Positions 1 to 10,116 of a DNA stretch of 10,116 bases are shown one piece after another. Both the position numbers and the translations under genes were made by a program. The stretch is from a virus (taxonomy: Duplodnaviria > Heunggongvirae > Uroviricota > Caudoviricetes), in the IMG/VR virus record IMGVR_UViG_2531839265_000009, positions 1-10,116 of that record. One strand, given 5' to 3'. The notes beneath the pieces are model-generated. The model was not told the origin of the DNA. It saw only the letters and a list, made by a program, of their open reading frames with translations, and did no database searches. Each line of letters starts with the position of its first letter. The stretch's first letter is position 1.

Positions 1-426
1 TTATAGATAGACCTCATCTATCAATCCCGTGCACACCTTCCCAAAAAAAAGTTTTCGAACCTGCGGCGATGTGAACAAGGGTAGGCGGGCGGTCCTGGGC
101 AGCCGGGGTTGCAAGGATTTGATCCGCCCCTCCCACCAATATTTATCGCCGTAACCGCTCCGGCTTCTTCCACTGGTACGTAATTTTTCTTTCTCCTGGT
201 ACATCTGCACGCGGCGACGGTACGACAACATCTCCAGAACTCTGGTGCGTATGTTGCGCATATCCACGCCGTTAAGCTCGATACCGTCACGGCGCATCAC
301 CTCAGCCACCACACGCGCGTAATTTCCGGCTATCACGCTGTCCGGCTGCGTGGCCTCCTGTTTGCCTGCTGCCTGGCTGGCTCCGGTAACGCGGCGAATC
401 ATTTTCAGCATTTCGGCTTCGGTCAT
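1..426 (-). CDS. hypothetical protein (141 aa from ATG 426; frame stays open to TTG at 456)
   Basis: Minus-strand ORF with TAA stop at 3..1. In-frame ATG at 426..424 lies 8 nt downstream of GGAGG (439..435). The N-terminal ~95 aa look like an ordinary helical protein; the C-terminal third is Arg/Pro-rich and overlaps a second open frame (21..290), so an undetected frameshift is possible. No family recognised. Confidence 0.45.
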   Translation of the reverse strand: MTEAEMLKMIRRVTGASQAAGKQEATQPDSVIAGNYARVVAEVMRRDGIELNGVDMRNIRTRVLEMLSYRRRVQMYQEKEKLRTSGRSRSGYGDKYWWEGRIKSLQPRLPRTARLPLFTSPQVRKLFFGKVCTGLIDEVYL

Positions 427-467
427 TGTCATGGCCTCCGTGGTGATAGGAAACAATGTCGTAATTG

Positions 468-547
468 TGGCGGGTCCTTCCTGGAAAATGAAACACCGGG
501 GGTAGCCATACGCGCAAAAACGCGCTGTTTATGAGATTTTTCGGAAG
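468..547. repeat. left arm of ~80-bp imperfect inverted repeat (partner at 1201..1280)
   Basis: Reverse complement of 468..547 aligns with 1201..1280 at roughly 80% identity. Conserved cores are AGCGCGTTTTTGCGCGTA and TACCCCCGGTGTTTCA, plus GGA(A)GGACCCG. Confidence 0.8.
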
Positions 548-708
548 GGTGGTTGTTGTTTAATTGTTTGTTATATCCATTTGATAACTAAGAGAAAACT
601 GAAAACAATACAACAACCTGAGGGCGTTTTTTTGATGTTATGGTTCCGAAAATGCCAATTAAATCAAATGGTTTAACAAAAATACGCGGTTGTTGTATTG
701 CATACTTA

Positions 709-1149
709 TTAGCTTTCCTGCTCTGTAACTACAGATTGTTGCAGATGCTCACGGCGAACGGCTACGGCATGACGCCACCCAGCCAGAAAGCCGGCCATTT
801 TATTTCGTGCCTTGCTCACGTCTTCCGGTGAGTAGCCGTAAATCTGCAGACCATTATCAAATCGCTGTTCTGTTTCTTCACTGAAAGACTCGTCGCGCTC
901 TGATGAAATCAACCTGGCAACCATAATCTTTTCCAGTGCGCTGGTTTCTCCATGGTGCTCAATAGCCTCAAGATGGCTTTTACCCATGCACCAGAATAAT
1001 GTGTGTCCGATGTGATAACCGCCGGACTTTCCGCGATCCGCATCAAGATACGGCATGCCCTGTTTGGTCCATGCGCGAATAGTGGTTCTGTTGACCTTGA
1101 AATGTTCTGCTATTTCCTGCTGACTCACAAAACAATCTTTATTATTCAT
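709..1149 (-). CDS. Nu1-like terminase small subunit-like protein (winged-HTH DNA-binding N-terminus); possible packaging-redirection factor
   Basis: 146-aa ORF. N-terminal segment QQEIAEHFKVNRTTIRAWTKQGMPYL resembles the lambda Nu1 N-terminus KKQLADIFGASIRTIQNWQEQGMPVL as I remember it. AAGGT RBS about 7 nt upstream of ATG 1149. Confidence 0.7.
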   Translation of the reverse strand: MNNKDCFVSQQEIAEHFKVNRTTIRAWTKQGMPYLDADRGKSGGYHIGHTLFWCMGKSHLEAIEHHGETSALEKIMVARLISSERDESFSEETEQRFDNGLQIYGYSPEDVSKARNKMAGFLAGWRHAVAVRREHLQQSVVTEQES

Positions 1150-1200
1150 AATGTTACCTTAATCGCATGATTAAATATTAATCAAGTGGTGGTGGTGTAC

Positions 1201-1280
1201 CCTTCCCGGAAAGTGTCATAAATAGCGCGTTTTTGCGCGTACACGTACCCCCGGTGTTTCAGATCCTGGAAAGGACCCGT
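1201..1280. repeat. right arm of ~80-bp imperfect inverted repeat (partner at 468..547)
   Basis: See partner arm. This arm lies between the terminator at 1282..1307 and the TerS-like start codon at 1149. Confidence 0.8.
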
Positions 1281-1281
1281 G

Positions 1282-1307
1282 AAAAAAAAGGCCGGATTGC
1301 TCCGGCC
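1282..1307 (-). terminator. rho-independent terminator at the end of the head-gene operon
   Basis: GGCCGGA (1290..1296) / TCCGGCC (1301..1307) stem with a 4-nt loop. On the minus strand it is followed by a run of 8 T (plus-strand A run 1282..1289). It sits directly after the stop of the ORF at 1312..1659. Confidence 0.75.
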
Positions 1308-1311
1308 TTTC

Positions 1312-1659
1312 TCAGATGTTTTTCAGTATGCGATCGATGGTATCCGTATCATAACCTTCACCTGCATAACCAGCATCTGCATAAATGGTCGCATCCTGTT
1401 TCATCATTGCGCTTAGTAGTTCGCTCGCCATATCTGCATCAAGACGCGAGACGCTAGCCATGCCACGCAATAACGGCTGATATTCAGGTGCGTCACTCAG
1501 AGCCATGATAGCGTTGACGCGATTTTTATCCTGCCTATCCAGAGCCTCAAGATTACTTCTGGCTTCATAAAGCGGCATCCCTTCATCTGCCATTGCCCTG
1601 GCTTCAACAGGAAATTTTCTGGCAAGCATTAACGACATAACGGCTTCATTCTTTGGCAT
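1312..1659 (-). CDS. hypothetical protein (115 aa), last gene of the head-gene operon
   Basis: Open frame on the minus strand. First ATG (1659..1657) follows the decoration-gene stop by 14 nt, and that intergenic spacer is a G8 homopolymer on the coding strand (C8 at 1662..1669). The upstream part of the 1312..1725 ORF overlaps the D-like gene in another frame and is not counted. No family recognised. Confidence 0.5.
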   Translation of the reverse strand: MPKNEAVMSLMLARKFPVEARAMADEGMPLYEARSNLEALDRQDKNRVNAIMALSDAPEYQPLLRGMASVSRLDADMASELLSAMMKQDATIYADAGYAGEGYDTDTIDRILKNI

Positions 1660-1673
1660 ATCCCCCCCCGTAA

Positions 1674-2009
1674 TTATCGCGCCAGTGGCTGAACTGATAT
1701 ACCTGACCCCGCAAAAGCTGCGCATTTCTTCACGTCTGTAGTGACGCTTTCAGGCCAGTTAACGGCGGCAATATTAAAAATCCCTGTCTTGTAACACTGT
1801 GCGGATTTTTGCTTTGCCGTGTCCAGGGGGTAGGAGGTCAGATAAATGGCCTTGCCTGATTCCTGACCGTCCCACGCCTTAAACTCGCCGTTCTCCGTCA
1901 TCATCAGCGGGGTAAACTCGGGAATAGCTCCGGCATCAGCGGCAAAGTGCACCAGCGTAGTGGAAACCTGCTGTGTACCGGAAAATAATTCAATATATGG
2001 AACGCCCAT
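1674..2009 (-). CDS. head decoration protein, lambda gpD-like
   Basis: 111-aa ORF. TPLMMTENGEFKAWDGQESGKAIYL...YKTGIFNIAAVNWPESVTTDVKKCAAFAGSGISV aligns along its whole length with lambda gpD as I remember it (TPLMLDTSSRKLVAWDG...[35 protein letters not shown]). GGGGGA RBS 5 nt upstream of the ATG. Confidence 0.8.
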   Translation of the reverse strand: MGVPYIELFSGTQQVSTTLVHFAADAGAIPEFTPLMMTENGEFKAWDGQESGKAIYLTSYPLDTAKQKSAQCYKTGIFNIAAVNWPESVTTDVKKCAAFAGSGISVQPLAR

Positions 2010-2021
2010 AAAAATCCCCCG

Positions 2022-3076
2022 TTAACCAATTTTCACGGTAACAAATTTGCGGATATCTGCCGGAACCGGTTGCGGTGCGCTGTGCGTCTGCACGTACTCA
2101 ATCGCCGGATCGCCTGGCTCAATCCAGTTTTTCGGGTAGTACATATTTCGTGTTGTGCCAGTTCTTACCGCGTCCTGATCCATAATTGCCCCATAGGCTA
2201 CCAGTCCTTTATTGCTGGTGTTCCCCAGAACAAGCAAATCAGGATCAAGAAAATGTTTTCTGTGCCGTCGCTGTCGGTGTATTTACCGGAATAAACAATA
2301 AGCGCCAGATCTCCCAGGTAGCCTTTAAAGCTCACCACTTCGCCCAGGTTTTTACACGCCAGCTCTGCCGCAGACTCTGACCCCCGGGACAAATCATAAA
2401 GTTCCCGGAATTTTTTAAAGCTGCGTAACAATCGCCAGGCATTCGCCCCCATAATCATGACGTTCGCGGGGCACTCAGCCTGTTCGGTATACAGTTCAAT
2501 ATCATCTGTCGGATCATGCGTCTCTTTATCCTGCTCAGACCATTTTTTCCCTGGCCCCTGCTGGATAATGCAGTTTGCTGGCATCCTCCAGTCGATTTCG
2601 TAGCGTTCTATGCCTTCGCCCTCAATGATATTTTTTCCGGTAGTGACTGCATTTACCGCCAGCCATTCAACACGGGCTTTGATGGCTTTTACCTGACGGC
2701 GAAGATTGCCGGTAATGAGGCGGAGGCGACGATAAGACGGGCTGTTGAGTGCTGCCGGATCTTCACCAGCAACACGCATAATGGTTTTTGATGGATCGAT
2801 TTCGTGTTTTGGCTTCATGTAGCCAGGCTGGATAATGCTTGTTTCGTACCCTTTATCACGCTGAACCTGACTACCCACCATCGGCGAACAAAATGCCGAC
2901 ATGGTTACTTCGTCATTTTCCAGATCATCTAACATAATCTTCTGTGTATCGAAGGTTGCGACGTTAGGGAAAAATAACGTGGTAAACAGCGGATTGAATT
3001 TAAAATCATCAACATCAGGACGATTCAGATAGGAAAAAAGCTGGTTTGTGTTCAGTGGTTGCGCCTTATCTGTCAT
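2022..3076 (-). pseudogene. major capsid protein, lambda gpE-like, interrupted by a 1-nt frameshift near 2250 (pseudogene or homopolymer sequencing error)
   Basis: ORF 2198..3076 matches the lambda gpE N-terminal and central regions (KFNPLFTTLFFP vs KFDPLFLRLFF; GYMKPKHEIDP vs GYVKPKHEVNP; THDPTDDIELY vs TYDPTDDIEAY). ORF 2022..2237 in another frame matches the gpE C-terminus (VLGNT..., YPKNWIEPGDPAIEY...). The frames switch at minus-strand gaaaacattttcttgat; one extra T would restore ...ENIFLDPDLLVLGNT.... GGGGGTGAG RBS upstream of ATG 3076. Confidence 0.8.
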
Positions 3077-3458
3077 TACTCACCCCCATGAGGCTGATTC
3101 ATACCAAGCGCAGCGCGTAAATGACTGCGTACCATCCAGCCGACTGACGGCTTCACCATGCACAACGGATCAAGGCCGATTTTTTTCCTGCCTCTGCGTT
3201 CTCCTCAAAGCGCGCATTAAGTGCGGCGATAATATCGGGGCTGATGTACACGGATACACCGCCCGGCTTCTGTGTTCCCATAAATGAGATTCCTCTTTGA
3301 CTAAAAACAAACATAACGAAAAGTCAGTCATGATTTTAATCATCGTTGCATTTTTTGCAATGATATTGACTGTTGTTGCAAATCATGAAATTATCATGCC
3401 GTGGTTTTACTCCTTGTACCACAGACTCATTCAGCATTAATCACGTTAGCGGCATGAA

Positions 3459-3492
3459 ATCCCCCGGAACCACATCCCGGGGGATTTTTTTT
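3459..3492 (+). terminator. plus-strand rho-independent terminator (no plus-strand CDS upstream; possible sRNA terminator)
   Basis: ATCCCCCGG (3459..3467) / CCGGGGGAT (3477..3485) 9-bp stem, followed by a T8 run on the plus strand. Confidence 0.6.
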
Positions 3493-3497
3493 GCGCA

Positions 3498-3524
3498 CAA
3501 AAAAGCCGGGAAAAATCCCGGCTT
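3498..3524 (-). terminator. minus-strand terminator downstream of ssb
   Basis: AAGCCGGGA (3503..3511) / TCCCGGCTT (3516..3524) 9-bp stem with a 4-nt loop. On the minus strand it is followed by TTTTGTG, a short U tract. It lies about 15 nt after the ssb stop. Confidence 0.5.
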
Positions 3525-3538
3525 CTGTCACTCGTTGC

Positions 3539-3961
3539 TTAAAACGGTATGTTATCCCCGTACGGATCATCATTACCCGCCTGTTGTTTTGCCCTGTTCA
3601 GCGCGTCAGTGGCCTGGCTCTGCTGGCCTTTTTTGCCGCCCGGGCGCGCCGTTCTGGCACTGATTACGCTGTCTGCGATAACCTGCCAGCCCTGCCGCGC
3701 TTCGCCGTTCTGGCCTGTCCACTGGCTTACCTGCATGTTACCCGCCACGCTCACCAGTTCGCCTTTGTGGTGTTTTGCCAGTGCGTCGGCCTGTCTGCCA
3801 AACGCCAGGACGGATAACCACATCGTCGCCGTTCCGTCATCTGCCTGGCTGCACGGCAGGGGAACCGCCATACTCGCCATCGCCATTTGTGTCCCTTTGC
3901 TGGTGGTCTTTAACTGCGGGTCAGTCGCCAACCGCCCGTAAGCCGCTATCTGTGCTGTCAT
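3539..3961 (-). CDS. ssb: single-stranded DNA-binding protein (SSB), plasmid/phage type
   Basis: 140-aa ORF. It has an OB-fold-like core (WLSVLAFGRQADALAKHHKGELVSVAGNMQVSQWTGQNG, compare E. coli SSB [40 protein letters not shown]), a Gly/Gln-rich linker and an acidic tail DDPYGDNIPF (compare DFDDDIPF). Its start overlaps the upstream gene stop as ATGA. Confidence 0.85.
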   Translation of the reverse strand: MTAQIAAYGRLATDPQLKTTSKGTQMAMASMAVPLPCSQADDGTATMWLSVLAFGRQADALAKHHKGELVSVAGNMQVSQWTGQNGEARQGWQVIADSVISARTARPGGKKGQQSQATDALNRAKQQAGNDDPYGDNIPF

Positions 3962-4209
3962 GCTGTCTGCTCTCCGGTTTTAACGTTGATGGTTGTCACC
4001 TGTTCCGCTTCGGCAATCTCCCGTTCTGTCAGCGTGGCAAAGTTTGCCGCCGCTGTGGTCATGAATGCGCTTATCAGTTCAGGATGCGCTTTCGCGTATC
4101 CTTCCCCGGCGTGGCGGTCTATCGTTCTGATTGCCACCTTTAAGGCGTGCTCTGTCATGTCTAATGCGCGATATTTTGGCGCTGTCTTATCTCTGCTTTT
4201 TCTGGTCAT
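3958..4209 (-). CDS. hypothetical protein (83 aa), translationally coupled to ssb
   Basis: Open frame whose stop overlaps the ssb start (ATGA). GAGGA lies immediately upstream of ATG 4209; an alternative internal start is M18. No family recognised. Confidence 0.5.
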   Translation of the reverse strand: MTRKSRDKTAPKYRALDMTEHALKVAIRTIDRHAGEGYAKAHPELISAFMTTAAANFATLTEREIAEAEQVTTINVKTGEQTA

Positions 4210-4218
4210 TCCTCACTG

Positions 4219-4412
4219 CTCCCCACTTTTACTACCCACTTTTTGAAATTACCCAACGTCTCCCCACTTCTTTTTTTGTGATTCTAACGTGATGTTTTTC
4301 AATGTATTTTTTATTCCCCACTTTTTGGGGTATATACAGGTGGGAAAGTGGGGAATCGCGTTTCAATTTTGTTAAATTCCCCACACTCCCCACTTTTACT
4401 ACCCACTTTTTA
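4219..4412. repeat. iteron-like repeat cluster with AT-rich spacer; candidate origin of replication
   Basis: 26-bp direct repeat CTCCCCACTTTTACTACCCACTTTTT at 4219..4244 and 4386..4411. Additional CCCCACTT(T) copies at 4262..4270 and 4316..4326. An inverted pair TTCCCCACTTT (4314..4324) / AAAGTGGGGAA (4345..4355). An AT-rich stretch at 4271..4315. The cluster lies immediately 3' of the helicase gene. Confidence 0.6.
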
Positions 4413-5783
4413 CAGTGGGCGCACGTCATCACCGTCAATAGCAATAACGCCATCACCTTCCAGCTTGTACAGCCAGCGCCGGAAGTGTTTCATCTCATAC
4501 CCCAGCTTTTTCATATCATCGCGCAACAACGGAATTGTGCATTTATCGCCGCGCTGTGTGCGTGAACGGATACAGCCCCATAGCGCGGCATGATTCTCCG
4601 TCTTGTTCCCGGCTTCCTCGATGCGCTCCAGTTCAACAGGTGGGCGCGGCTTATCCACAACCACCAGCGACGTGATTAACTCCTTGTCAGCGTCGGTAAA
4701 AAGCTCCACCACGCGTAAATCGTATGCAGCCTCTTTAAGTTCCTCCGCGTCCTTCATTTTGGTACAGGAGATAACCAGGGCTTCACTGTCTGCACCTTCC
4801 CGGCGAATACGGTATTCAGCGTCCAGAGATGCACGAAATGCACTGGAACCACGCGCCCCCTTTGTTTCATCCTTGCCGGAATGGTGAACCACCAGTACCG
4901 TGGCCCCTGTGCGTCGCTTCAGTTCGTCACATCCACGGATAAACGCCCCCATATCCCGCGCGTCATTTTCATCATTACCGCCAAAGCAACGCGCCAGCGT
5001 GTCCAGAATAATCATGCGTACCGGTTTACCCGTTTCCCGTTCAACCTGACGGGAAGCGATGACCATTTCATCAACATCAAGCGGGACCGCCGGAAAAATC
5101 GGGCGGTTTACCAGGTACAGATTTTTCACCCGTTCATCATTAACGATTTCCCATGCTTTGATACGACGAGGGACACCAATGCCACCTTCACCGACGACAT
5201 ACATCACCGAACCATGCGCCACCCTGCGGCCTCCCCAGTGGCGACCCGTGGCAACATGACACGCCCAGGAACACGCGAGGAATGATTTATAGGAACCGCT
5301 CGCGCCGTATGTGCTACACAATGAATTAGCCGGAATCACGCCCTTAACGACATAATCAAGCTGTGTGTCGTACCCTGCAGATCCAATACTCATTGGTAGC
5401 GTGGTTTTTCGCTGGCTGTATTGCTCGTCAGTAAGTATTTCCCCGCGCTCTGCCTGTTCGCGGATCCGTTGCAGGTAGTCGTGCCAGTTCTCCAGCTTCT
5501 GGCTGTGCATTCCCTCAGGGTAATAATTCGCATCCCGTACACCTGCCGCCGCCAGTTTTTGCCCGATGGCATTAATATTTGACGGCTTGATGTGGCCTGC
5601 CTTGTATAGCCGGACACAATAGCGACCATCATCGATGATTTTCAGGTCTGCCAGTTCGTCAAGCTGGCTGTCTCCCAGCCATACAGGCGGAACATTGTCG
5701 CCAGCAAGTCGCCCGTCCTGTTCCTGCCATTGTTTCGCGTGCGCCCAGGCATCACTACCCGCAAAAATAATGACTTCGGTCAT
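4410..5783 (-). CDS. replicative helicase, RecA-fold AAA_25 / RSF1010 RepA-like ATPase domain with an unassigned ~150-aa N-terminal domain
   Basis: 457-aa ORF. RMIILDTLARCF (Walker B-like), TVLVVHHSGKD and KGARGSSAF match the RepA/AAA_25 helicase pattern as I remember it (RLMVLDTLRRF, SIVFLHHASKG, ASRGSS). The P-loop region is GASGSYKS at 5283..5306. Confidence 0.75.
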   Translation of the reverse strand: MTEVIIFAGSDAWAHAKQWQEQDGRLAGDNVPPVWLGDSQLDELADLKIIDDGRYCVRLYKAGHIKPSNINAIGQKLAAAGVRDANYYPEGMHSQKLENWHDYLQRIREQAERGEILTDEQYSQRKTTLPMSIGSAGYDTQLDYVVKGVIPANSLCSTYGASGSYKSFLACSWACHVATGRHWGGRRVAHGSVMYVVGEGGIGVPRRIKAWEIVNDERVKNLYLVNRPIFPAVPLDVDEMVIASRQVERETGKPVRMIILDTLARCFGGNDENDARDMGAFIRGCDELKRRTGATVLVVHHSGKDETKGARGSSAFRASLDAEYRIRREGADSEALVISCTKMKDAEELKEAAYDLRVVELFTDADKELITSLVVVDKPRPPVELERIEEAGNKTENHAALWGCIRSRTQRGDKCTIPLLRDDMKKLGYEMKHFRRWLYKLEGDGVIAIDGDDVRPL

Positions 5784-5820
5784 TTTGTCGTGCGGCTGTT
5801 TTTTAAGTTCGGTGCCAGTT

Positions 5821-6120
5821 TCATTTTTTGCCCCTGAATGCGTTAATCATGTTTTTCATTTTCTGAATGTTCGCCCGTGCCCTGGCGTTACTGGTGGGCT
5901 GTTTGCGTGGTGTGGCCTGTACCAGTGAAAAATCGCGCCGGAACTGATAAACAGGCATCACGCAGTCATAGCTGTACCCATCACGGCGGTAAGTAACGCA
6001 TCGTCCCGCCACGCTTTTAATCGTTACCGTGCCGCCGTAGTTATCCCTGAAAATATCGCCGGGGCGGATTTCAGGCCGAGCGGGGCCGCTGGCAGTAAAG
6101 CCAGAATTTTTCTGTTTCAT
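5821..6120 (-). CDS. hypothetical small basic protein (99 aa) immediately upstream of the helicase gene
   Basis: Open frame with AGAGGA RBS 8 nt upstream of ATG 6120; lysine/arginine-rich C-terminus. No family recognised. Confidence 0.55.
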   Translation of the reverse strand: MKQKNSGFTASGPARPEIRPGDIFRDNYGGTVTIKSVAGRCVTYRRDGYSYDCVMPVYQFRRDFSLVQATPRKQPTSNARARANIQKMKNMINAFRGKK

Positions 6121-6190
6121 GGTTTTTATTCCTCTGCGCGGGTCTTGTTGTGTATTTCCATAACCGCGTTTAATTCATCAATAACCGGGG

Positions 6191-6334
6191 TTAACAGAGT
6201 GCTGAAAGCAGAAAATAAATCCCCCCCTGTTCGGCATGAACTTCGGTTAATTTAATTAATACCGCTTTCATTTCCAGTGCCCGATTTAATGCATTCTCAG
6301 AATGAATAAGAACATCGAAAGGGATTTCATTCAT
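6191..6334 (-). CDS. hypothetical small protein (47 aa)
   Basis: My own translation from ATG 6334..6332 gives MNEIPFDVLIHSENALNRALEMKAVLIKLTEVHAEQGGIYFLLSALC, stop TAA at 6193..6191. It is below the ORF-track length cutoff. Its start overlaps the stop of the upstream gene (ATGAATGA) and shares the start context GGTGAGCCATG with that gene. Confidence 0.4.
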   Translation of the reverse strand: MNEIPFDVLIHSENALNRALEMKAVLIKLTEVHAEQGGIYFLLSALC

Positions 6335-6791
6335 GGCTCACCACCTCCGGGAATTTTCTTCTGTAACGCGCCTCTGCAACATATTCCGCATAGTCCGACG
6401 CAATATTGAGAATATCCACACCCTCTGCCCTGTAGCCACTGGTACTGATAAGGAAAAATGCGGCTTTCATCATGTCGGCAACGCATAACAACGCATCGCC
6501 GGTGTGTTCTGGTGCGCCATCAAATTCCTGTTTCAGGGCATTAAAACGATCATCACGCATAACCCCCCCATTTTCACAATCAGCAATCAGGATGGCTTTA
6601 GCCTCATTCAGTGCCATATCAGCGGTAAGCTGTGCGTAGGCCAGCGAATGGGGGATTATTGCCCCTGTATACTCCGGCTCTCTGCTAATGTGTTTTTCCG
6701 CGGTTGCTGCCGTGCATGAAATATTAATCAGCGCGTGCATCAGCGTTCTGATAGCTTCGGCGGCTGCGTCCGGACGGGTGTTATTGCACAT
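6327..6791 (-). CDS. hypothetical protein (154 aa)
   Basis: Open frame with GGGGGTGAG RBS and start ATG 6791..6789. Overlaps the upstream gene by 11 nt and the downstream small ORF by 8 nt. No family recognised. Confidence 0.55.
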   Translation of the reverse strand: MCNNTRPDAAAEAIRTLMHALINISCTAATAEKHISREPEYTGAIIPHSLAYAQLTADMALNEAKAILIADCENGGVMRDDRFNALKQEFDGAPEHTGDALLCVADMMKAAFFLISTSGYRAEGVDILNIASDYAEYVAEARYRRKFPEVVSHE

Positions 6792-6987
6792 GGCTCACCC
6801 CCTGACGAATACGGGCGGCGAATACCATCACGCAGCCAGCCGGGGATTGCTGGCGTGCTTCCTGTTCGCTGGTGGCCTCAATGGTAATCACGCGCGGTTG
6901 TGCCGTACTCAGGGCGATAAAACGCCAGATATATTTATTCAGGTTGTGCGAGTCCCGCCCTTGCGGGTGTGTGGTATGATTTCTCAT
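6781..6987 (-). CDS. hypothetical small protein (68 aa)
   Basis: The 3' 68 codons of the long 6781..7425 frame, starting at ATG 6987..6985 with GAGG 5 nt upstream. The rest of that frame runs antisense through the RHH gene and is rejected. Stop TAA at 6783..6781 overlaps the next gene's start. Confidence 0.4.
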   Translation of the reverse strand: MRNHTTHPQGRDSHNLNKYIWRFIALSTAQPRVITIEATSEQEARQQSPAGCVMVFAARIRQGVSHVQ

Positions 6988-7068
6988 AGCTGCCTCGATA
7001 CTCTTTCTATCGTTGGTGGTTAGACGCCCTGCATGTGTGCCACCACTGCGGGGCGTTGCGTTTTTTGA

Positions 7069-7128
7069 TGTACACGTGTTAAGGTGTACACCTAACGAAC
7101 CAAAACATAACGCTATAGGTGTACACAT
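7069..7128. promoter_or_regulatory. three GTGTACAC-type palindromic operator-like sites upstream of, and overlapping the start of, the RHH gene
   Basis: TGTACAC at 7069..7075 overlapping the ACACGTGT palindrome at 7072..7079. Perfect 12-bp palindrome AGGTGTACACCT at 7082..7093. AGGTGTACACAT at 7117..7128, which overlaps the probable RBS (AGGTG) and the A of ATG 7127. Confidence 0.6.
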
Positions 7129-7321
7129 GTCAACAGTTATTAAGCGCGATAAAAAACAAAAAGGCACAGGAAAGGCCCCACCATTCCATATGCGTATAGT
7201 CCCTGAATTGAAGGAGCAGTTTGATAACGAAGCCAGTAACGATGGAGTAAGTCTTGCCAACTGGCTTAAAGAGTTAGGGCGCAAAGAACTGCTACGGCGC
7301 GGAATTGAGCCAAAGGGATAA
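7127..7321 (+). CDS. Arc/Mnt-family ribbon-helix-helix DNA-binding protein (64 aa)
   Basis: FHMRIVPELKEQFDNEASNDGVSLANWLKELGRKEL fits the RHH beta-strand plus two-helix pattern (compare Mnt FNFRMPMEVREKLKFRAEANGRSMNSELLQIV). ATG 7127 sits 5 nt after AGGTG. The longer 7013..7321 frame upstream has no RBS and runs through the operator palindromes. Confidence 0.6.
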   Translation: MSTVIKRDKKQKGTGKAPPFHMRIVPELKEQFDNEASNDGVSLANWLKELGRKELLRRGIEPKG

Positions 7322-7330
7322 CTATCACTA

Positions 7331-7861
7331 ATGTCGCAACCAGAGGAGTTGCGACTCCAAAGATTACATAGGAGATTAATGATTATGGGATTCGTCATTT
7401 TCATTGCGATCGTAATTTTATCCATTTACGTTCTTACCAAATTATTTATTTCAGAAAATTCACACGACAAAATTAGAGCCGAGGCATCCAGAAGAATTGC
7501 ACAAGAAGAGGCCGAACGGGCTAAGTTGTATGAAGAGAGAAAGGAATCATCTGATAATCCTGTTAATAAACAAAAACGAATAACAACACACGAAGATCAT
7601 TTTTATATGGATATTCATGGCGGTCACAAATATATATGTGTTGATGCTAAGTTAGTTTTTGAATATGCAAATTTAAAACACAACTATTTTCTTCACGCAT
7701 CTCACTATTTCCCTGAGTTAGAGTATGTTTATGGAAAAAACGAACATGGGAAAATAGTTAGAGTAGATTTGTACGATAAAAAAATTCAAGCTATTAACCC
7801 CGATACTGGCGAAAAAATACCAGGTGTGAGACGTTACCTACGACAGCACAAGATAAAATAG
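7331..7861 (+). CDS. single-pass membrane protein with ~130-aa His/Tyr-rich C-terminal domain, unknown function (AT-rich cargo gene)
   Basis: Open frame with one hydrophobic helix (MIMGFVIFIAIVILSIYVLTKLF) preceded by a basic segment (RLQRLHRRL), then a charged linker and a C-terminal domain. Strong AGGAG (7370..7374) favours ATG 7379 or 7385 as the real start; 7331 is the longest frame. Markedly AT-richer than its surroundings, by eye. Confidence 0.6.
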   Translation: MSQPEELRLQRLHRRLMIMGFVIFIAIVILSIYVLTKLFISENSHDKIRAEASRRIAQEEAERAKLYEERKESSDNPVNKQKRITTHEDHFYMDIHGGHKYICVDAKLVFEYANLKHNYFLHASHYFPELEYVYGKNEHGKIVRVDLYDKKIQAINPDTGEKIPGVRRYLRQHKIK

Positions 7862-7963
7862 CCCACCGGAATTTTTTTCCGGTTACGCTTTGCCCACCAG
7901 CCGCAAATGTGGCATTGTTGGCAATGCTCATGCGTTGGGGATAACGTGTAGCTTGTGTCGAAT

Positions 7964-7991
7964 GGCCACCGTAGCAGGTGGCCTTTGTTTT
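7964..7991 (+). terminator. rho-independent terminator for the plus-strand cassette
   Basis: GGCCACC (7964..7970) / GGTGGCC (7977..7983) 7-bp stem with a 6-nt loop, followed by TTTGTTTT. Confidence 0.65.
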
Positions 7992-8142
7992 GCCTGTTAT
8001 CCGGCAATTGTGGCGCTTCGTCACACGGTTGATATAATTCCCCTGCACTGATCCATTTTTTTCGCAGCAGGTTAATTGTTCACAAGGGCGCTCCGGCAAC
8101 GGGGTGCTTTTTGTTATGTTCATTGCGTTACACCTAACACCA

Positions 8143-8349
8143 TTACGCAGCCGTTCCGCGCGCTTCTTCCTCGCGTTCTTTCAGCCAGGCCAGCACCTCA
8201 TCTTCATACCAGCCAACACGGCGCAGACCGATTTTGAAGCCTTTCGGGAATTTTCCGGCGCTGATCATGTCCTGTAGCGAACTGTCTGCCTTGATGCGCA
8301 GAATATTTTTTACTTCCTGACGGGTAAGAATTTTTCTGATTACTTCCAT
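8143..8349 (-). CDS. alpA: AlpA-family phage transcriptional regulator (MerR-like HTH; excisionase/activator-like)
   Basis: 68-aa ORF. ILTRQEVKNILRIKADSSLQDMISAGKFPKGFKIGLRRVGWYEDEVLAWL matches the AlpA pattern (L..V....G.S..T.Y.....G.FP.....G.R.VGW...EV..WL). GAGGT RBS 9 nt upstream of ATG 8349. Confidence 0.85.
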   Translation of the reverse strand: MEVIRKILTRQEVKNILRIKADSSLQDMISAGKFPKGFKIGLRRVGWYEDEVLAWLKEREEEARGTAA

Positions 8350-8414
8350 CGTGTTTTACCTCGTTAATCCGGCGTATTCCGGTGATAAATACGGTAAAAC
8401 AGGGCAGGGCGGGA

Positions 8415-8454
8415 AAAACAGTACTCACCGTTTTAAAACGGTACTCACTGTTTT
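8415..8454. promoter_or_regulatory. two tandem 20-bp imperfectly palindromic repeats upstream of alpA (candidate operator)
   Basis: AAAACAGTACTCACCGTTTT at 8415..8434 and AAAACGGTACTCACTGTTTT at 8435..8454, differing at 2 positions. Each has inverted ends AAAAC.G / C.GTTTT around TACTCAC. Confidence 0.55.
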
Positions 8455-8482
8455 TATCTCATTGATTACGCTTTCTTTTTGC

Positions 8483-8513
8483 AAAAAAAATAGCGACCGC
8501 AAGGGGCCGCTAT
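8483..8513 (-). terminator. rho-independent terminator after the int / small-ORF transcription unit
   Basis: ATAGCGACC (8490..8498) / GGCCGCTAT (8505..8513) stem with one mismatch. On the minus strand it is followed by a T run (plus-strand A run 8483..8489). Confidence 0.6.
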
Positions 8514-8518
8514 TGTGA

Positions 8519-8761
8519 TTACCGCTTCCACTTCTTAGGTCGTCCACCACATTTAAGGCTGGTGGGTCTCAGCACCTTGTCGATGCTTTCAGCCAGATTT
8601 TTCGATGCGCCACGCGAGCGTAAAAAACTGACTACCTCGTGTTTTGTGGGGGCTGTTGATTTGTCTTCCGGATCGTATGTTGACCAGAATTCATGATTTG
8701 CCATTAACGCCAGTTGCAGTCCTTCACCGCAGACATTGGATGATTTTTCGTGCCAGACCAT
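8519..8761 (-). CDS. hypothetical protein (80 aa) between int and alpA
   Basis: Open frame only. Weak RBS. Basic C-terminus (GRPKKWKR). No family recognised; the exact start is uncertain. Confidence 0.4.
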   Translation of the reverse strand: MVWHEKSSNVCGEGLQLALMANHEFWSTYDPEDKSTAPTKHEVVSFLRSRGASKNLAESIDKVLRPTSLKCGGRPKKWKR

Positions 8762-8874
8762 TTCAATAAATCTCGATTTCTCATGAGTCGGGTTTTTCCT
8801 TGTCTGTTGAGGAGATAGAGGATTATACGATGGTTTGGCATGGTTTGCACTGGTTATACTGTTTTTTTGTACAG

Positions 8875-10116
8875 TTACACGGCACGGATACCCCTTTTAC
8901 CACTGGCTATGGTCACTCCGGTAGCTGCGGCCTCTACAAATTCCCCCCACCAGCGCATAAGCACCACGCGCTTTTCCAGGTAGTTACTTCGGTTATATGC
9001 TCGCCTTACCTCGTTCGTGTCCACGTGTGCGAGTGCGGCCTCGATTACGTCCGGCTCGAATCCTTCCTCGTTCGCTGCTGTACTGAATATGGCGCGTAAT
9101 CCGTGAGACACCAGCACACCAGCGTATCCCATCCGGCGCAATGCAGCGTTAGCGGTCTGGCTGCTCATTGGCAGCATTGGATTTTTAAGGCTGGGAAAAA
9201 CATGTTCCCTGTGTGCGCTGATTGGCTTCATTGTTTCCAGTACAGCCATCGCCTGACCGCAAAGAGGGATCACATGGTCACGGCGCATCTTCATGCGTCC
9301 GGCTGGAATCGTCCATGTTTCGGCATCGAGATCTATTTCTTCCCAGCGTGCGGCGGCTGCTTCGGCTGGGCGTGCTACGGTCAGCAGTTGCCACTCAATC
9401 AGCAATCTGGTTTGCCGTTCTATGCTGGCGACCGATAAATCGTGCATTAGCTGCGGTAGCTGTTCCGGTCGGATGGTTGGCATATGCTTTTTAGTGGGAG
9501 AAGGGAATGCCTTGCGGACGTTCGCTGCGGTGTTGATGTCAATCAGCCCACTGTTGGCAGCAAAATCCATCACTTCATTGATGCGTTGTAAAACGCGTTT
9601 CAGAGTTTCCAGGTTGCCACGCGCTTTAATGGGGGTGAGTATCTCGACAAAGCGGCGAGCGGTGAGGGTATCTATTGGCGTTTTTCCGATGTACGGGAAT
9701 ACGTATTTTTCCATGGATCGCCAGATATCCTTAATCGTGTTGTAAGCCAGATTCTGGCCTTTTTTCATCTCGTACCAGTCCGAGGCAACTTTTTCGAACG
9801 TGTTGCCCTTTTTCCTGCTCTCTGCTTCACGTTTCCGGCGTTCGTAGTCCTGTGGGTCAGTTCCCTTTGCTATGAGTGACCTGTATTCATTCCGTCGCTC
9901 TCTGGCATCAGACAGGGAAACATCATTTAGCGATCCAAGGCTGATAATAGTCCGTTTTTTATCTGCCGGGCGGTAGTACGTAAAACGCCAGATTTTTGAT
10001 CCGGAGGGCTTCACCAGAAGAAATAATCCTCCGCCATCCTGCAGGGTATATTCCTTTTCCCCTGGTCGTGCGTTTTTGATCTCCGTAATAGTTAGTGGGG
10101 GGGTTTTTCGTGCCAT
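8875..10116 (-). CDS. int: tyrosine site-specific integrase, P4-family (prophage CP4-like)
   Basis: 413-aa ORF. N-terminus YTLQDGGGLFLLVKPSGSKIWRFTYY is the typical P4-type integrase arm domain. C-terminal catalytic region contains the HGLR box (VSHGLRAIFSTAA) and a downstream Tyr (RRAYNRSNYLEKR). The ATG is the last three bases of the window, so its RBS and the attachment site lie outside. Confidence 0.95.
   Translation of the reverse strand: MARKTPPLTITEIKNARPGEKEYTLQDGGGLFLLVKPSGSKIWRFTYYRPADKKRTIISLGSLNDVSLSDARERRNEYRSLIAKGTDPQDYERRKREAESRKKGNTFEKVASDWYEMKKGQNLAYNTIKDIWRSMEKYVFPYIGKTPIDTLTARRFVEILTPIKARGNLETLKRVLQRINEVMDFAANSGLIDINTAANVRKAFPSPTKKHMPTIRPEQLPQLMHDLSVASIERQTRLLIEWQLLTVARPAEAAAARWEEIDLDAETWTIPAGRMKMRRDHVIPLCGQAMAVLETMKPISAHREHVFPSLKNPMLPMSSQTANAALRRMGYAGVLVSHGLRAIFSTAANEEGFEPDVIEAALAHVDTNEVRRAYNRSNYLEKRVVLMRWWGEFVEAAATGVTIASGKRGIRAV

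Follow-up and report, generated by a model that had tools for sequence, protein, structure and literature searches.

An Icd-led, translationally coupled gene chain with length-variable poly-G tracts and a predicted antisense RNA in a probable EcCICFT073-type PICI

The window, i.e., the whole stretch of 10,116 nt analyzed here (positions 1 to 10,116 of IMG/VR virus record IMGVR_UViG_2531839265_000009), carries integrase, AlpA, RepA-family helicase, SSB, capsid, and head-decoration genes, and its gene order equals that of EcCICFT073 of E. coli CFT073, gene by gene (order described in PMC6092414). Integrase, AlpA, replicase, and late/packaging genes stand in the canonical order of a phage-inducible chromosomal island (PICI) within approximately 10 to 12 kb. 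Taken together, positions 6191 to 6987 and their flanks probably belong to a PICI of the EcCICFT073 type and form the front of its early (replication-proximal) operon. The window also matches, gene by gene, relatives that sit at tRNA-Pro, next to yejM, and island-related DNA was found in 1,327 of 5,426 complete E. coli genomes (approximately one-quarter). The att sites fall outside the window.

The features of the locus are collected in Table 1. The minus-strand ORFs of 68, 154, and 47 aa are present as given in a preliminary description, with exact stop/start overlaps (ATGTGCAATAA, 11 nt, and ATGAATGA, 8 nt), and that description was right about their tight coupling and about their place in a satellite, with a cargo/regulator cassette on one side and replication genes on the other. 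It also noted correctly that two of the starts share an 11-mer, GGTGAGCCATG, found at 6332-6342 and 6789-6799. Dinucleotide shuffles gave 0.20 expected matches to this 11-mer, and two matches were reached in 1 of 200 shuffles. GGTGAGCCATG comprises a strong Shine-Dalgarno (SD) sequence (GG[T/G]GGTGA, matching GGAGGTGA), a spacer, and an ATG. In 57 related loci the SD sequence and ATG are kept at both junctions and the bases between them vary, so the exact identity of the 11-mer in the window is incidental.

Table 1. Features of the early operon front and its control region (positions in the window)
Feature	Position	Strand	Remarks
Predicted sigma-70 promoter (TTGACA, 18 nt, TATGTT)	7104..7133	-	consensus scan
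Three GTGTACAC-core palindromes, candidate operators	7068..7126	.	flank the -10; 7068-7075, 7082-7093 (perfect AGGTGTACACCT), and 7119-7126
Ribbon-helix-helix (RHH)-like protein, 64 aa, divergent	7127..7321	+	phrog_228 Arc-like at 8.6e-5
Predicted cis-antisense structured RNA	6985..7071	+	covers icd start codon, SD, and leader; two hairpins and U-rich tail (7058-7067)
Gene 1, Icd-like/Kil-type protein, 68 aa	6781..6987	-	first translated gene; SD GAGG at 6993-6996
154-aa ORF	6327..6791	-	in-frame fusion of two small genes; phrog_2512
N-half module	6561..6791	-	phrog_5146 at 2.9e-25; homologous to separate 73- to 86-aa genes of relatives
Poly-G tract 1, G7 on coding strand	6563..6569	-	joins N and C modules in frame
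C-half module	6327..6560	-	phrog_24341 at 3.8e-38; own ATG (6558-6560) kept; homologous to separate 73- to 77-aa genes
47-aa ORF, apparent truncated third gene (phrog_2196 family; intact, 68 to 77 aa)	6191..6334	-	alignment with L021, L038, and L060
Poly-G tract 2, A+G7, 8 nt	6221..6227	-	in-frame length, 9 nt
Third gene 3' remnant, out of frame, intact	6126..6220	-	encodes LFSAFSTLLTPVIDELNAVMEIHNKTRAEE and a stop; ends 5 nt before DUF4222 ATG
DUF4222 protein, 99 aa, next cistron	5821..6120	-	PF13973 at 7.9e-25
RepA-family helicase/replicase	4410..5824	-	AAA_25 at 3.5e-44; phrog_2850

The early chain from the Icd-like gene through DUF4222 to the replicase is kept across the 57 loci, with overlaps of 11, 8, 8, and 4 nt, and the whole chain is translationally coupled. 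The gene for DUF4222, of which the OI-51 homologue RgdR has been described (PMC10877973), lies directly upstream of the replicase gene in all loci, and the ancestral repA ATG (5822-5824) overlaps its stop (ATGA). Icd-led chains of this kind are found in PICIs, cf-PICIs, and P4-like elements.

Profile and sequence matches identify gene 1 as a member of the Icd/Kil family. The NCBIfam Icd-like model NF033153 matches gene 1 at 69.8 bits (cutoff, 25; residues 19 to 62), P1 Icd at 52.6 bits (residues 12 to 51), and the P4 “cI” ORF at 73.9 bits (residues 85 to 132, its Kil end). BLASTP aligns gene 1 with P1 Icd at 31% identity over 52 aa (E, 2e-6; P1 residues 11 to 60). P1 Icd binds FtsZ and stops division, and its active core comprises residues 12 to 51 (PMC11897509), which is exactly the stretch matched by NF033153; gene 1 resembles P1 Icd over this core. 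In addition, PGAP labels the 68-aa homologues in relatives Icd-like. The target of gene 1 would be host FtsZ and not the helper phage, and Icd/Kil identity would explain the toxicity of uncontrolled island induction and tie these islands to a reported prophage cell-death system. A PDB sequence search with gene 1 gave no match, and the phage collection gave a single match, to one cf-PICI-like record.

The PHROG families of gene 1 are 6196 and 1743, and the PHROG label “transcriptional repressor” was rejected for it: phrog_1743 holds the P4 “cI 137-aa” ORF and P1 Icd, and the label seems to derive from the earlier annotation of P4 cI as a protein. P4 immunity is RNA borne (PMC10111431). A 214-aa ORF (6781-7425) was considered as an Eta-like long form of gene 1 and was also rejected, since its in-frame starts lie only at or upstream of the predicted promoter, within the divergent RHH gene, and since PGAP gives 68 aa in relatives.

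In the 154-aa ORF, two genes that EcCICFT073 and many relatives keep apart are fused in frame. Its N half is 49% identical to CFT073 WP_001372127 and 89% identical to a 79-aa gene of relative L002, and its C half is 54% identical to CFT073 WP_001204077 and 88% identical to a 77-aa gene of L002. Both halves are under purifying selection (dN/dS of 0.38 and 0.29, respectively). Proteins fused by an in-frame tract 1 (G7 or G10) form at least 120 clusters, and stand-alone 77-aa forms of the C half form at least 45. The allele types of the two modules reassort freely between loci, which speaks against a tightly coevolving heterodimer. Both fused and split forms occur naturally at the poly-G tract, which suggests a capacity of the two modules to function as a single chain and offers a handle for biochemistry.

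Tract 1 is a coding-sequence homopolymer (≥7 nt) whose length differs between near-identical sequences, as at contingency loci. Its lengths across the 57 loci are G7 (11 loci), G8 (31 loci), G9 (13 loci), and G10 (2 loci), it is G8 in the CFT073 reference genome, and two loci with identical 500-nt flanks carry G8 and G9, respectively. At least 16 length changes are required on a tree of 50 taxa. Every frame of the tract retains both modules, as one fused chain or as two ORFs, because the C gene has its own ATG and tract 1 doubles as a G-rich, SD-like run ahead of it. As both modules are made at every length from G7 to G10, the slip-prone tract can drift freely.

Alignment with relatives indicates that the 47-aa ORF is an allele of a conserved 68- to 77-aa gene carrying a one-base deletion at or beside tract 2. 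The translation of the out-of-frame remnant is identical to that of full-length relatives, and clusters of both kinds exist, full length (68, 69, or 70 aa) and truncated (47 to 52 aa). The corresponding stretch was 7, 8, 9, 10, or 11 nt long in 10 loci, in frame in only two of these and truncating the third gene in the other eight, and there are third-gene protein clusters whose loop reads G, GG, or GGG. Both the 69-aa form and the CFT073 77-aa gene match phrog_2196, and hhalign relates the two forms to each other (E, 6.6e-6). The intact product would be a conserved two-helix protein.

A possible explanation, although not the one favored here, is that sequencing errors in homopolymers, rather than biology, account for the differences in poly-G length and above all for the 47-aa ORF. 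Relative to its nearest relative, the window has nine single-base indels (eight deletions and one insertion), nearly all in homopolymer runs, and three of them break conserved genes, namely, those for the capsid protein, RepA, and the third gene, the last with a perfectly intact 3' remnant. The frameshifting indels lie at 2260, 5799-5804, and 6221. In repA, an A7-to-A6 change at 5799-5804 (compared with L001, L002, and L060) places the ancestral start out of frame, leaving a 457-aa ORF from 5783. However, tract 1 varies in 52 metagenome contigs, mostly short-read-type assemblies by name, and is G8 in CFT073; out-of-frame third-gene alleles form multimember clusters from independent sources, including E. 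albertii; and the in-frame G7 and G10 fused proteins are as numerous as given above. The variation of the tracts is more probably biological. Any of the frameshifts in the window itself may be an artifact of sequencing; those in the capsid and RepA genes represent either decay or sequencing error and could impair induction, packaging, and transfer of this copy. More generally, homopolymer indels may yield spurious “new” small ORFs in annotation.

The preliminary description had counted three genes of unknown function, none resembling a family known to its author. The count fails, as the 154-aa ORF corresponds to two genes in many relatives, fused at G7, and the 47-aa ORF to a truncated allele. 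The absence of family resemblance was likewise mistaken: gene 1 passes NF033153 and aligns with P1 Icd, and all three ORFs fall into PHROG families. “Unknown function” still applies to two of the ORFs but not to the Icd-like gene 1. The description's suggestion of helper-interference or regulatory factors may hold for the helical proteins. Structure prediction and profile searches yielded AlphaFold2 (AF2) helical hairpins and the family of gene 1 but no fold match for the 154-aa ORF. The AF2 model of the N half is a helical hairpin over residues 8 to 72 (pLDDT, 70 to 87), the overall model being of moderate quality (pLDDT, 65), and Foldseek comparison with PDB and BFVD returned generic helical hairpins only (E of ≥0.48). 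Because these hairpins lack a fold match, we infer function from position alone.

Further searches place these proteins in a narrow group. Neither the 154-aa nor the 47-aa ORF has a match in Pfam or NCBIfam, PADLOC matches none of the three ORFs, and a PDB sequence search with the 154-aa ORF gave no match. Distant-homologue searching of 1.84 billion representative proteins returned only 48 clusters, constituting one narrow enterobacterial family, and the phage collection contained no match at the DNA level and none to the 154-aa ORF by tblastn. The small proteins were rejected as paralogs of one another (hhalign probability of ≤2%), the exception being the third genes of 69 aa and 77 aa, which are related. 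The proteins carry no DNA-binding motif and are acidic (pI 4.7 to 5.1). The helical proteins most likely bind host or helper proteins at induction and would be neither enzymes nor DNA binders.

Among more specific roles, it is unlikely that the acidic proteins following Icd are helper-directed antirepressors or derepressors that switch on, or hamper, a resident lambdoid helper. An antirepressor directly follows icd/kil in P1 (ant1/2) and in P4 (epsilon, “helper derepression protein”), the candidate proteins are small, acidic, and helical, and none of 50,697 phage records contains them, their occurrence being limited to satellite-like islands. However, comparison with epsilon, ORF151, and Cnr gave no evidence of homology (hmmsearch, <0 bits; hhalign probability, ≤2%), and the published work consulted on E. 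coli PICIs (e.g., PMC6092414) contains no report of helper derepression. Sequence and profile comparisons revealed no similarity to P4 epsilon or P1 Ant, and the equivalence is positional only. Two particular candidates were rejected: the N module as a relative of P4 epsilon (a local identity of 10/21 failed the profile test; HMM, -1.4 bits) and the 154-aa ORF as a relative of P4 ORF151, which is similar in length but not homologous.

A second reading, to which we likewise give little probability, takes the chain for an abortive-infection or programmed-cell-death module carried by a satellite, with an Icd-like effector, a requirement for the small genes and the replicase, and a phage protein as the trigger. 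In the prophage system of ECOR61, the likely effector is, by its description, an Icd-like protein, and reconstitution of cell death required all six linked genes, a primase among them; the trigger is an accessory gene of a phage (Silas et al., bioRxiv 10.1101/2023.04.06.535777). The ECOR61 Icd-like protein, however, carries a long extension at its N terminus, like that of P4 Eta, the phenotype may be mere satellite induction, and PADLOC gave no match in the window.

Replication accessory factors, i.e., an origin remodeler, a helicase loader, or a copy number control such as P4 Cnr, are quite improbable as the identity of the helical proteins. Their genes always lie directly upstream of, and are coupled to, those for DUF4222 and the replicase, and P4 Cnr occupies an equivalent neighborhood, but the same families occur with three unrelated replicases (RepA helicase, primase, and DUF927 primase), and the proteins are acidic, without a DNA-binding motif and without Cnr homology.

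Finally, the suggestion that the ORFs beyond gene 1 arose by chance, prompted by the missing Pfam and NCBIfam matches and by the 47-aa equivalent left uncalled by PGAP in L001, is extremely improbable and, for the N module, the C module, and the full-length third gene, is refuted by dN/dS values of 0.29 to 0.38, hundreds of homologous clusters, conserved SD-plus-ATG junctions, and PHROG matches, although the 47-aa product itself may be nonfunctional.

Transcription of the chain would start from the predicted promoter, whose TTGAC(A/G) element is kept in 21 leader variants, and would probably be kept off by the divergent RHH protein, a candidate repressor of the early operon that also gives weak HicB and TraJ matches. 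The palindromes flanking the -10 are candidate operators for this protein. In other loci, different repeats occupy these positions together with a different divergent regulator gene (CFT073 versus window type), the position of the RHH gene being taken in CFT073 by a YlcI/YnfO-family gene. The coupled transcript would carry, in order, Icd-like, N module, C module, third gene, DUF4222, and RepA cistrons, with strong SD sequences and overlapping stops and starts passing ribosomes from one to the next.

Gene 1 is the first translated gene of this operon, with a promoter and leader directly upstream and an 11-nt overlap with the next cistron. By analogy with P1 c4-icd-ant and P4 eta/kil, translation of icd may be the gate for all downstream cistrons, and icd left untranslated would open the mRNA to premature termination. 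In P4, Eta translation blocks termination and Kil is lethal to the cell (PMC10111431). In P1, icd and ant1 overlap by 4 nt, and icd is annotated as needed for ant expression.

Control of the gate itself probably lies with a structured RNA read from the strand opposite the icd ribosome-binding site. The predicted RNA folds at -37.6 kcal/mol (z, -5.2), and the antisense strand folds far better than the sense strand in all 21 variants. Standard pairs occupy 96% of cells, versus 36 to 54% in slid controls, and seven pairs have changed on both sides, i.e., in a compensatory manner, both in an alignment fitted to the model. The covariance model gave 54 matches, covering most of the 62 sequences (the window and 61 loci), the cf-PICI included, and no match in P1 or P4. 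The element combines conserved structure, covariation, and strand-specific G-U pairs with a U-rich tail following them. A consensus scan found no plus-strand promoter; a candidate extended -10 (TGgTATGAT, 6972-6980) is present without a -35. C4 and isrK RNAs (Rfam RF01695 and RF01394) went undetected in the window, even with E values up to 1 allowed, and are present in P4-type relatives (L009, L028, L039, and L046) ahead of the same chain.

The genes of the chain are ordinary, but novelty is possible for two features, namely, the apparently hypermutable poly-G tracts and the predicted antisense structured RNA. We tentatively propose that a cis-antisense RNA of approximately 85 nt, together with a swappable divergent repressor/operator set, gates the early/replication operon of EcCICFT073-type PICIs and cf-PICIs, replacing the C4/CI RNA of P1 and P4, and that the poly-G tracts make both the fused or split architecture and the on/off state of the third gene heritably variable. 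If so, the antisense RNA and the repressor/operator sets would be the “missing” immunity control that silences Gram-negative PICIs, an open question of the founding PICI paper. Published tests of EcCICFT073 cover genes downstream of the origin only, and the literature consulted contains no tests of any gene between alpA and the replicase gene, although the islands are common.

EcCICFT073 (O-island 51, C_RS30125 to C_RS06985) shares with the window a divergent small regulator, an Icd-like gene, overlapping small genes, DUF4222, replicase, SSB, capsid, and head-decoration genes, and its Icd-like protein is 98% identical to that of the window over 64 aa. The leader and the antisense element are also shared. 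Unlike the window, EcCICFT073 has an extra 76-aa gene after Icd, separate N and C genes (G8) that are approximately 50% identical to those of the window, a 77-aa third gene, a primase rather than a RepA helicase as its replicase, and a YlcI/YnfO-type divergent regulator with different operator repeats.

In the immI operon of P1 (c4, icd, and ant1/ant2), an Icd-family gene is likewise translated first and overlaps the next gene, and RNA control acts at the icd ribosome-binding site, where it is predicted in the window. In P1, however, processing of the same transcript releases C4, which acts in trans at sites a2 and b2, whereas the candidate RNA of the window lies on the opposite strand, and P1 ant is unrelated to the downstream genes of the window. 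The left operon of P4 (vis, eta/kil in the old “cI” ORF, epsilon, ORF151, cnr, and alpha) resembles the window in its Icd-like Kil end, followed by overlapping small genes and then the replicase. Epsilon, ORF151, and cnr have no detectable homology to the N, C, or third genes, and the window differs from P4 in lacking both a CI/C4 RNA and, ahead of any plausible start, a long Eta-type extension.

Phase-variable homopolymer contingency loci are known from Neisseria, Haemophilus, and Campylobacter, and such switching is, to our knowledge, unusual in E. coli. Tract 1 resembles these loci in its G7 to G10 run inside coding sequence and in length differences between near-identical sequences but differs in that it would toggle between a fused chain and two chains and would not switch expression off. 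In type I toxin-antitoxin systems, such as SymR/SymE, a cis-antisense RNA controls a toxic small protein. The predicted arrangement follows the same logic, placing a short structured RNA with a terminator opposite the 5' untranslated region and start codon of a growth inhibitor. Unlike a type I toxin gene, however, icd heads a multigene replication operon, and its logic is nearer to that of phage immunity than to that of a stand-alone pair.

The three overlapping minus-strand ORFs of 68, 154 and 47 aa belong to the Icd-led early operon of an already known type of satellite, in which one gene is fused and another is broken. The ORFs are present as described previously, as are their overlapping stop and start codons (exactly, ATGTGCAATAA and ATGAATGA) and the 11-mer common to two of the starts; these sequence observations stand, but the reading as three unfamiliar genes does not. 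Shuffled sequences gave 0.20 expected matches to the 11-mer, and two were reached in 1 of 200 shuffles. Each copy has the coding-strand sequence AGG[T/G]GGTGAGCCATG, i.e., a near-consensus Shine-Dalgarno sequence (GGAGGTGA), a short spacer and a start codon. Shine-Dalgarno sequence and ATG are kept at both junctions in 57 related loci and the bases in between vary, indicating that the exact identity of the 11-mer in the window is incidental to a shared design of translational coupling. G/C runs of ≥7 nt are enriched in the window (4 observed versus 0.9 expected; P about 0.015), and in this island runs of G seem to function as Shine-Dalgarno sequences.

Features of the operon and its surroundings (ordered by position in the window)
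Feature	Position (nt)	Strand	Remarks
Third G8 run	1662-1669	coding strand	
DUF4222 gene	5821-6120	-	
47-aa ORF	6191-6334	-	ORF call
Poly-G tract 2	6221-6227	+ strand coordinates	mid third gene
154-aa ORF	6327-6791	-	ORF call
11-mer GGTGAGCCATG	6332-6342 and 6789-6799		
Conserved core at tract 1	about 6540-6590		
Poly-G tract 1	6563-6569	+ strand coordinates	G7, reads through
68-aa ORF (gene 1, icd)	6781-6987	-	ORF call
Candidate extended -10	6972-6980		TGgTATGAT
Candidate antisense RNA	6985-7071	+	two hairpins, then U-rich tail; opposite icd leader, start and SD
Three GTGTACAC-core palindromes	7068-7126		flank promoter, bracketing the operon's -10
Predicted sigma-70-like promoter	7128-7133 (TTGACA), 7104-7109 (TATGTT)		110 nt upstream of icd
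Divergent 64-aa Arc/RHH-like gene	7127-7321	+	adjoins palindromes
176-aa ORF	7331-7861	+	
Partial Icd-like pseudogene in close relatives' annotation	about 7880-8123	-	downstream of alpA
AlpA	8143-8349		
Integrase	8875-10116		

Contrary to the claim that none of the ORFs resembles a known family, gene 1 scores 69.8 bits with NF033153 (“host cell division inhibitor Icd-like”), a curated NCBIfam model whose cutoff of 25 bits is thereby exceeded. The model also matches residues 12-51 of P1 Icd and, in satellite P4, the C-terminal residues 85-132 of the former “cI 137-aa” ORF, which are the eta/kil region, and direct BLASTP of gene 1 against P1 Icd gave 31% identity over 52 residues (E 2e-6). P1 Icd is an FtsZ-binding protein that stops the Z-ring from forming; residues 12-51 are its active core (PMC11897509). 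In P4, Kil is cell-killing, and translating Eta keeps the operon from being terminated prematurely (PMC10111431). The PHROG matches of gene 1 (phrog_6196 and 1743) are labelled “transcriptional repressor”, a label common to the P4 “cI” ORF and P1 Icd; it was rejected as an apparent legacy of the era when P4 cI was a supposed protein. A 214-aa ORF enclosing gene 1 was likewise rejected as a long form, its only in-frame starts lying at or upstream of the predicted promoter and inside the divergent gene. Some islands (loci L028 and L053) carry tandem Icd-like genes: a 67-aa copy with an antisense-type leader, followed by an Ash/Eta-type ORF with a second Icd-like domain at its end. Scanning of L028 against Rfam located a C4 RNA in the Ash/Eta-type part.

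The 154-aa ORF is two genes fused. PHROG families match the whole (2512), residues 1-73 (5146) and residues 78-153 (24341), and the halves are separate overlapping genes in Escherichia coli CFT073 and the related locus L002 and have 86 and 77 aa in locus L001. The join is a poly-G run (tract 1; context GATTGTGAAAAT-Gn-TTATGCGTGATGA): G7 and G10 give read-through, G8 makes the first gene stop at a TGA overlapping the second gene's ATG (ATGCGTGA), and G9 lengthens the first gene by 28 nt. Among 57 loci (52 metagenome contigs, one Shigella genome, three E. coli genomes and the window), 31 have G8, 13 have G9, 11 have G7 and 2 have G10. One contig with G8 and another with G9 have identical 500-nt flanks, and between G7 contigs and the CFT073 reference, which has G8, 0.4% of the flank positions differ. 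A parsimony count on a 50-taxon tree required at least 16 changes in length; the expectation from shuffling was close to this, at 21.

Since the second gene's ATG is always retained with the G-run just upstream, both modules would still be produced from every tract length, which accounts for the free drift in length. Both modules are under purifying selection (dN/dS, 0.38 for N and 0.29 for C). Fused forms of 150-156 aa with a GG or GGG linker make up at least 120 protein clusters and stand-alone 77-aa C-halves at least 45. Distant relatives amount to only 48 clusters among 1.84 billion representatives, and as these are mostly separate ~75-aa genes without the tract, the split state is ancestral. 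Loci combine N-type and C-type alleles differently, the reassortment taking place around a ~45-nt core of conserved nucleotides at the junction; this argues against allele-specific coevolution of the two halves. The core is nucleotide identical in the window, L001, L002 and L004 (a third related locus) though the proteins are only ~50% identical; given the reassortment across it, it may mark the point at which gene modules are joined by recombination.

To judge from its sequence, the 47-aa ORF is a truncated allele of the third gene. With 9 nt at tract 2, as in loci L021, L038 and L060, the gene is in frame and encodes 69 aa, its stop lying 5 nt before the DUF4222 start; the 8-nt stretch in the window leads to termination after 47 codons, with the 31 codons downstream intact in the other frame. 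Full-length proteins of 68, 69 and 70 aa and truncated ones of 47-52 aa from independent sources occur in the protein database, and a widespread subfamily of 75 aa lacks the tract. The CFT073 77-aa gene falls into phrog_2196 together with the 69-aa form (hhalign of the two, E 6.6e-6). In 8 of the 10 loci of the window's subtype, the third gene is out of frame.

In the nearest relative (L060; 96.6% identity over 8 kb), the 68-, 154- and 69-aa genes and those for RepA and the capsid are all intact. Nine single-base indels (eight deletions, one insertion) separate the window from it, nearly all of them in homopolymer runs. Deletions at 2260, 5799-5804 and 6221 shift the frame, dividing the capsid protein (351 aa) into 292 + 71 aa, shortening RepA from 471 to 457 aa and breaking the third gene; the others are at 189, 1205, 3187, 3308 and 4278. 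The indels reflect either a decaying island or homopolymer sequencing error, and the 47-aa ORF should therefore not be regarded as a product of design.

The small proteins are all acidic (pI 4.7-5.1). AlphaFold2 modelled the 154-aa ORF as two helical hairpins with a low-confidence linker (mean pLDDT 65); the best Foldseek match of this model in PDB and BFVD had an E value of only 0.48, and sequence searches of Pfam, NCBIfam and PDB with this ORF gave no match. PADLOC matched none of the three ORFs. Both paralogy among the small proteins and kinship to the P4 equivalents by position (epsilon, ORF151, cnr) were rejected. Only position therefore points to their role: in P1 and P4, icd/kil is followed by an antirepressor gene. 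The small-gene families accompany three different replicase types, and none occurs in the phage collection. A preprint reports on a prophage cell-death system that depends on six linked genes, a primase among them, and probably has an Icd-like protein as its effector (bioRxiv 10.1101/2023.04.06.535777).

One of the three palindromes at the predicted promoter is a perfect AGGTGTACACCT. At the same two positions, other loci carry different repeats, and they vary in the divergent regulator gene as well (CFT073 versus window type); repeats and regulator look like a pattern of exchangeable immunity specificities. This candidate swappable repressor/operator immunity set occurs in a type of phage-inducible chromosomal island (PICI) said to be without a known repressor.

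The candidate antisense RNA folds at -37.6 kcal/mol (z -5.2), and in 21 of 21 distinct variants the antisense strand folds at -35 to -42 kcal/mol, versus -21 to -28 for the sense strand. G-U pairs in its helices would be mismatches on the sense strand, and compensatory changes are present. A covariance model gave 54 matches across most of 62 sequences (the window and 61 fetched loci), including a second Icd class ~50% diverged and a cf-PICI-like record, and none in P1 or P4; the candidate is also absent from Rfam. In the model-fitted alignment, 96% of cells pair, versus 36-54% with partners slid, and seven pairs change on both sides. The candidate extended -10 lies at the right distance, within icd codons 3-5, which are invariant.

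The window is a satellite island reading right to left: after integrase and AlpA come a plus-strand cassette (64-aa RHH-like and 176-aa membrane-anchored proteins), the minus-strand chain, DUF4222, an AAA_25/RepA-family helicase, SSB, a lambda-E-like capsid gene and a head-decoration gene. DNA related to 6100-7130 is present in 1,327 of 5,426 complete E. coli genomes, and a search of 50,697 phage records with this DNA gave no match. The relatives are integrated at tRNA-Pro, adjoining yejM. The 176-aa ORF, with its N-terminal hydrophobic segment, is situated in a patch of low GC (0.33-0.40) that separates the RHH gene from a hairpin terminator; it matches no family in Pfam, PHROG or PADLOC and may be variable-slot cargo, because relatives have a 158-aa gene at the same place. 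The pseudogene downstream of alpA, annotated in close relatives, lacks the C-terminus, which suggests insertion of the cargo/regulator cassette into an older alpA-to-eta/icd arrangement. The DUF4222 gene is always directly upstream of the replicase, with an ATGA overlap in relatives; RgdR, a DUF4222 homologue in O-island 51, is a reported activator of the enterohemorrhagic E. coli type III secretion system via Ler (PMC10877973). The head-decoration stop lies 5 nt before the third G8 run, and the next ATG 2 nt after it.

In P1, icd and ant1 share a 4-nt overlap, and the annotation has icd as a requirement for ant expression. P4-type relatives have both C4 and isrK ahead of the same chain, unlike the window, in which Rfam detected neither and a modelled candidate antisense RNA would take the place of C4. 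This predicted RNA and the hypermutable poly-G tracts are worth following. EcCICFT073, the model Gram-negative PICI of strain CFT073, contains int, an AlpA activator, pri-rep and capsid and head-decoration homologues (c1499 and c1500) and is listed as O-island 51 (PMC6092414). Its published tests are confined to genes downstream of the origin, and its gene order agrees with that of the window.
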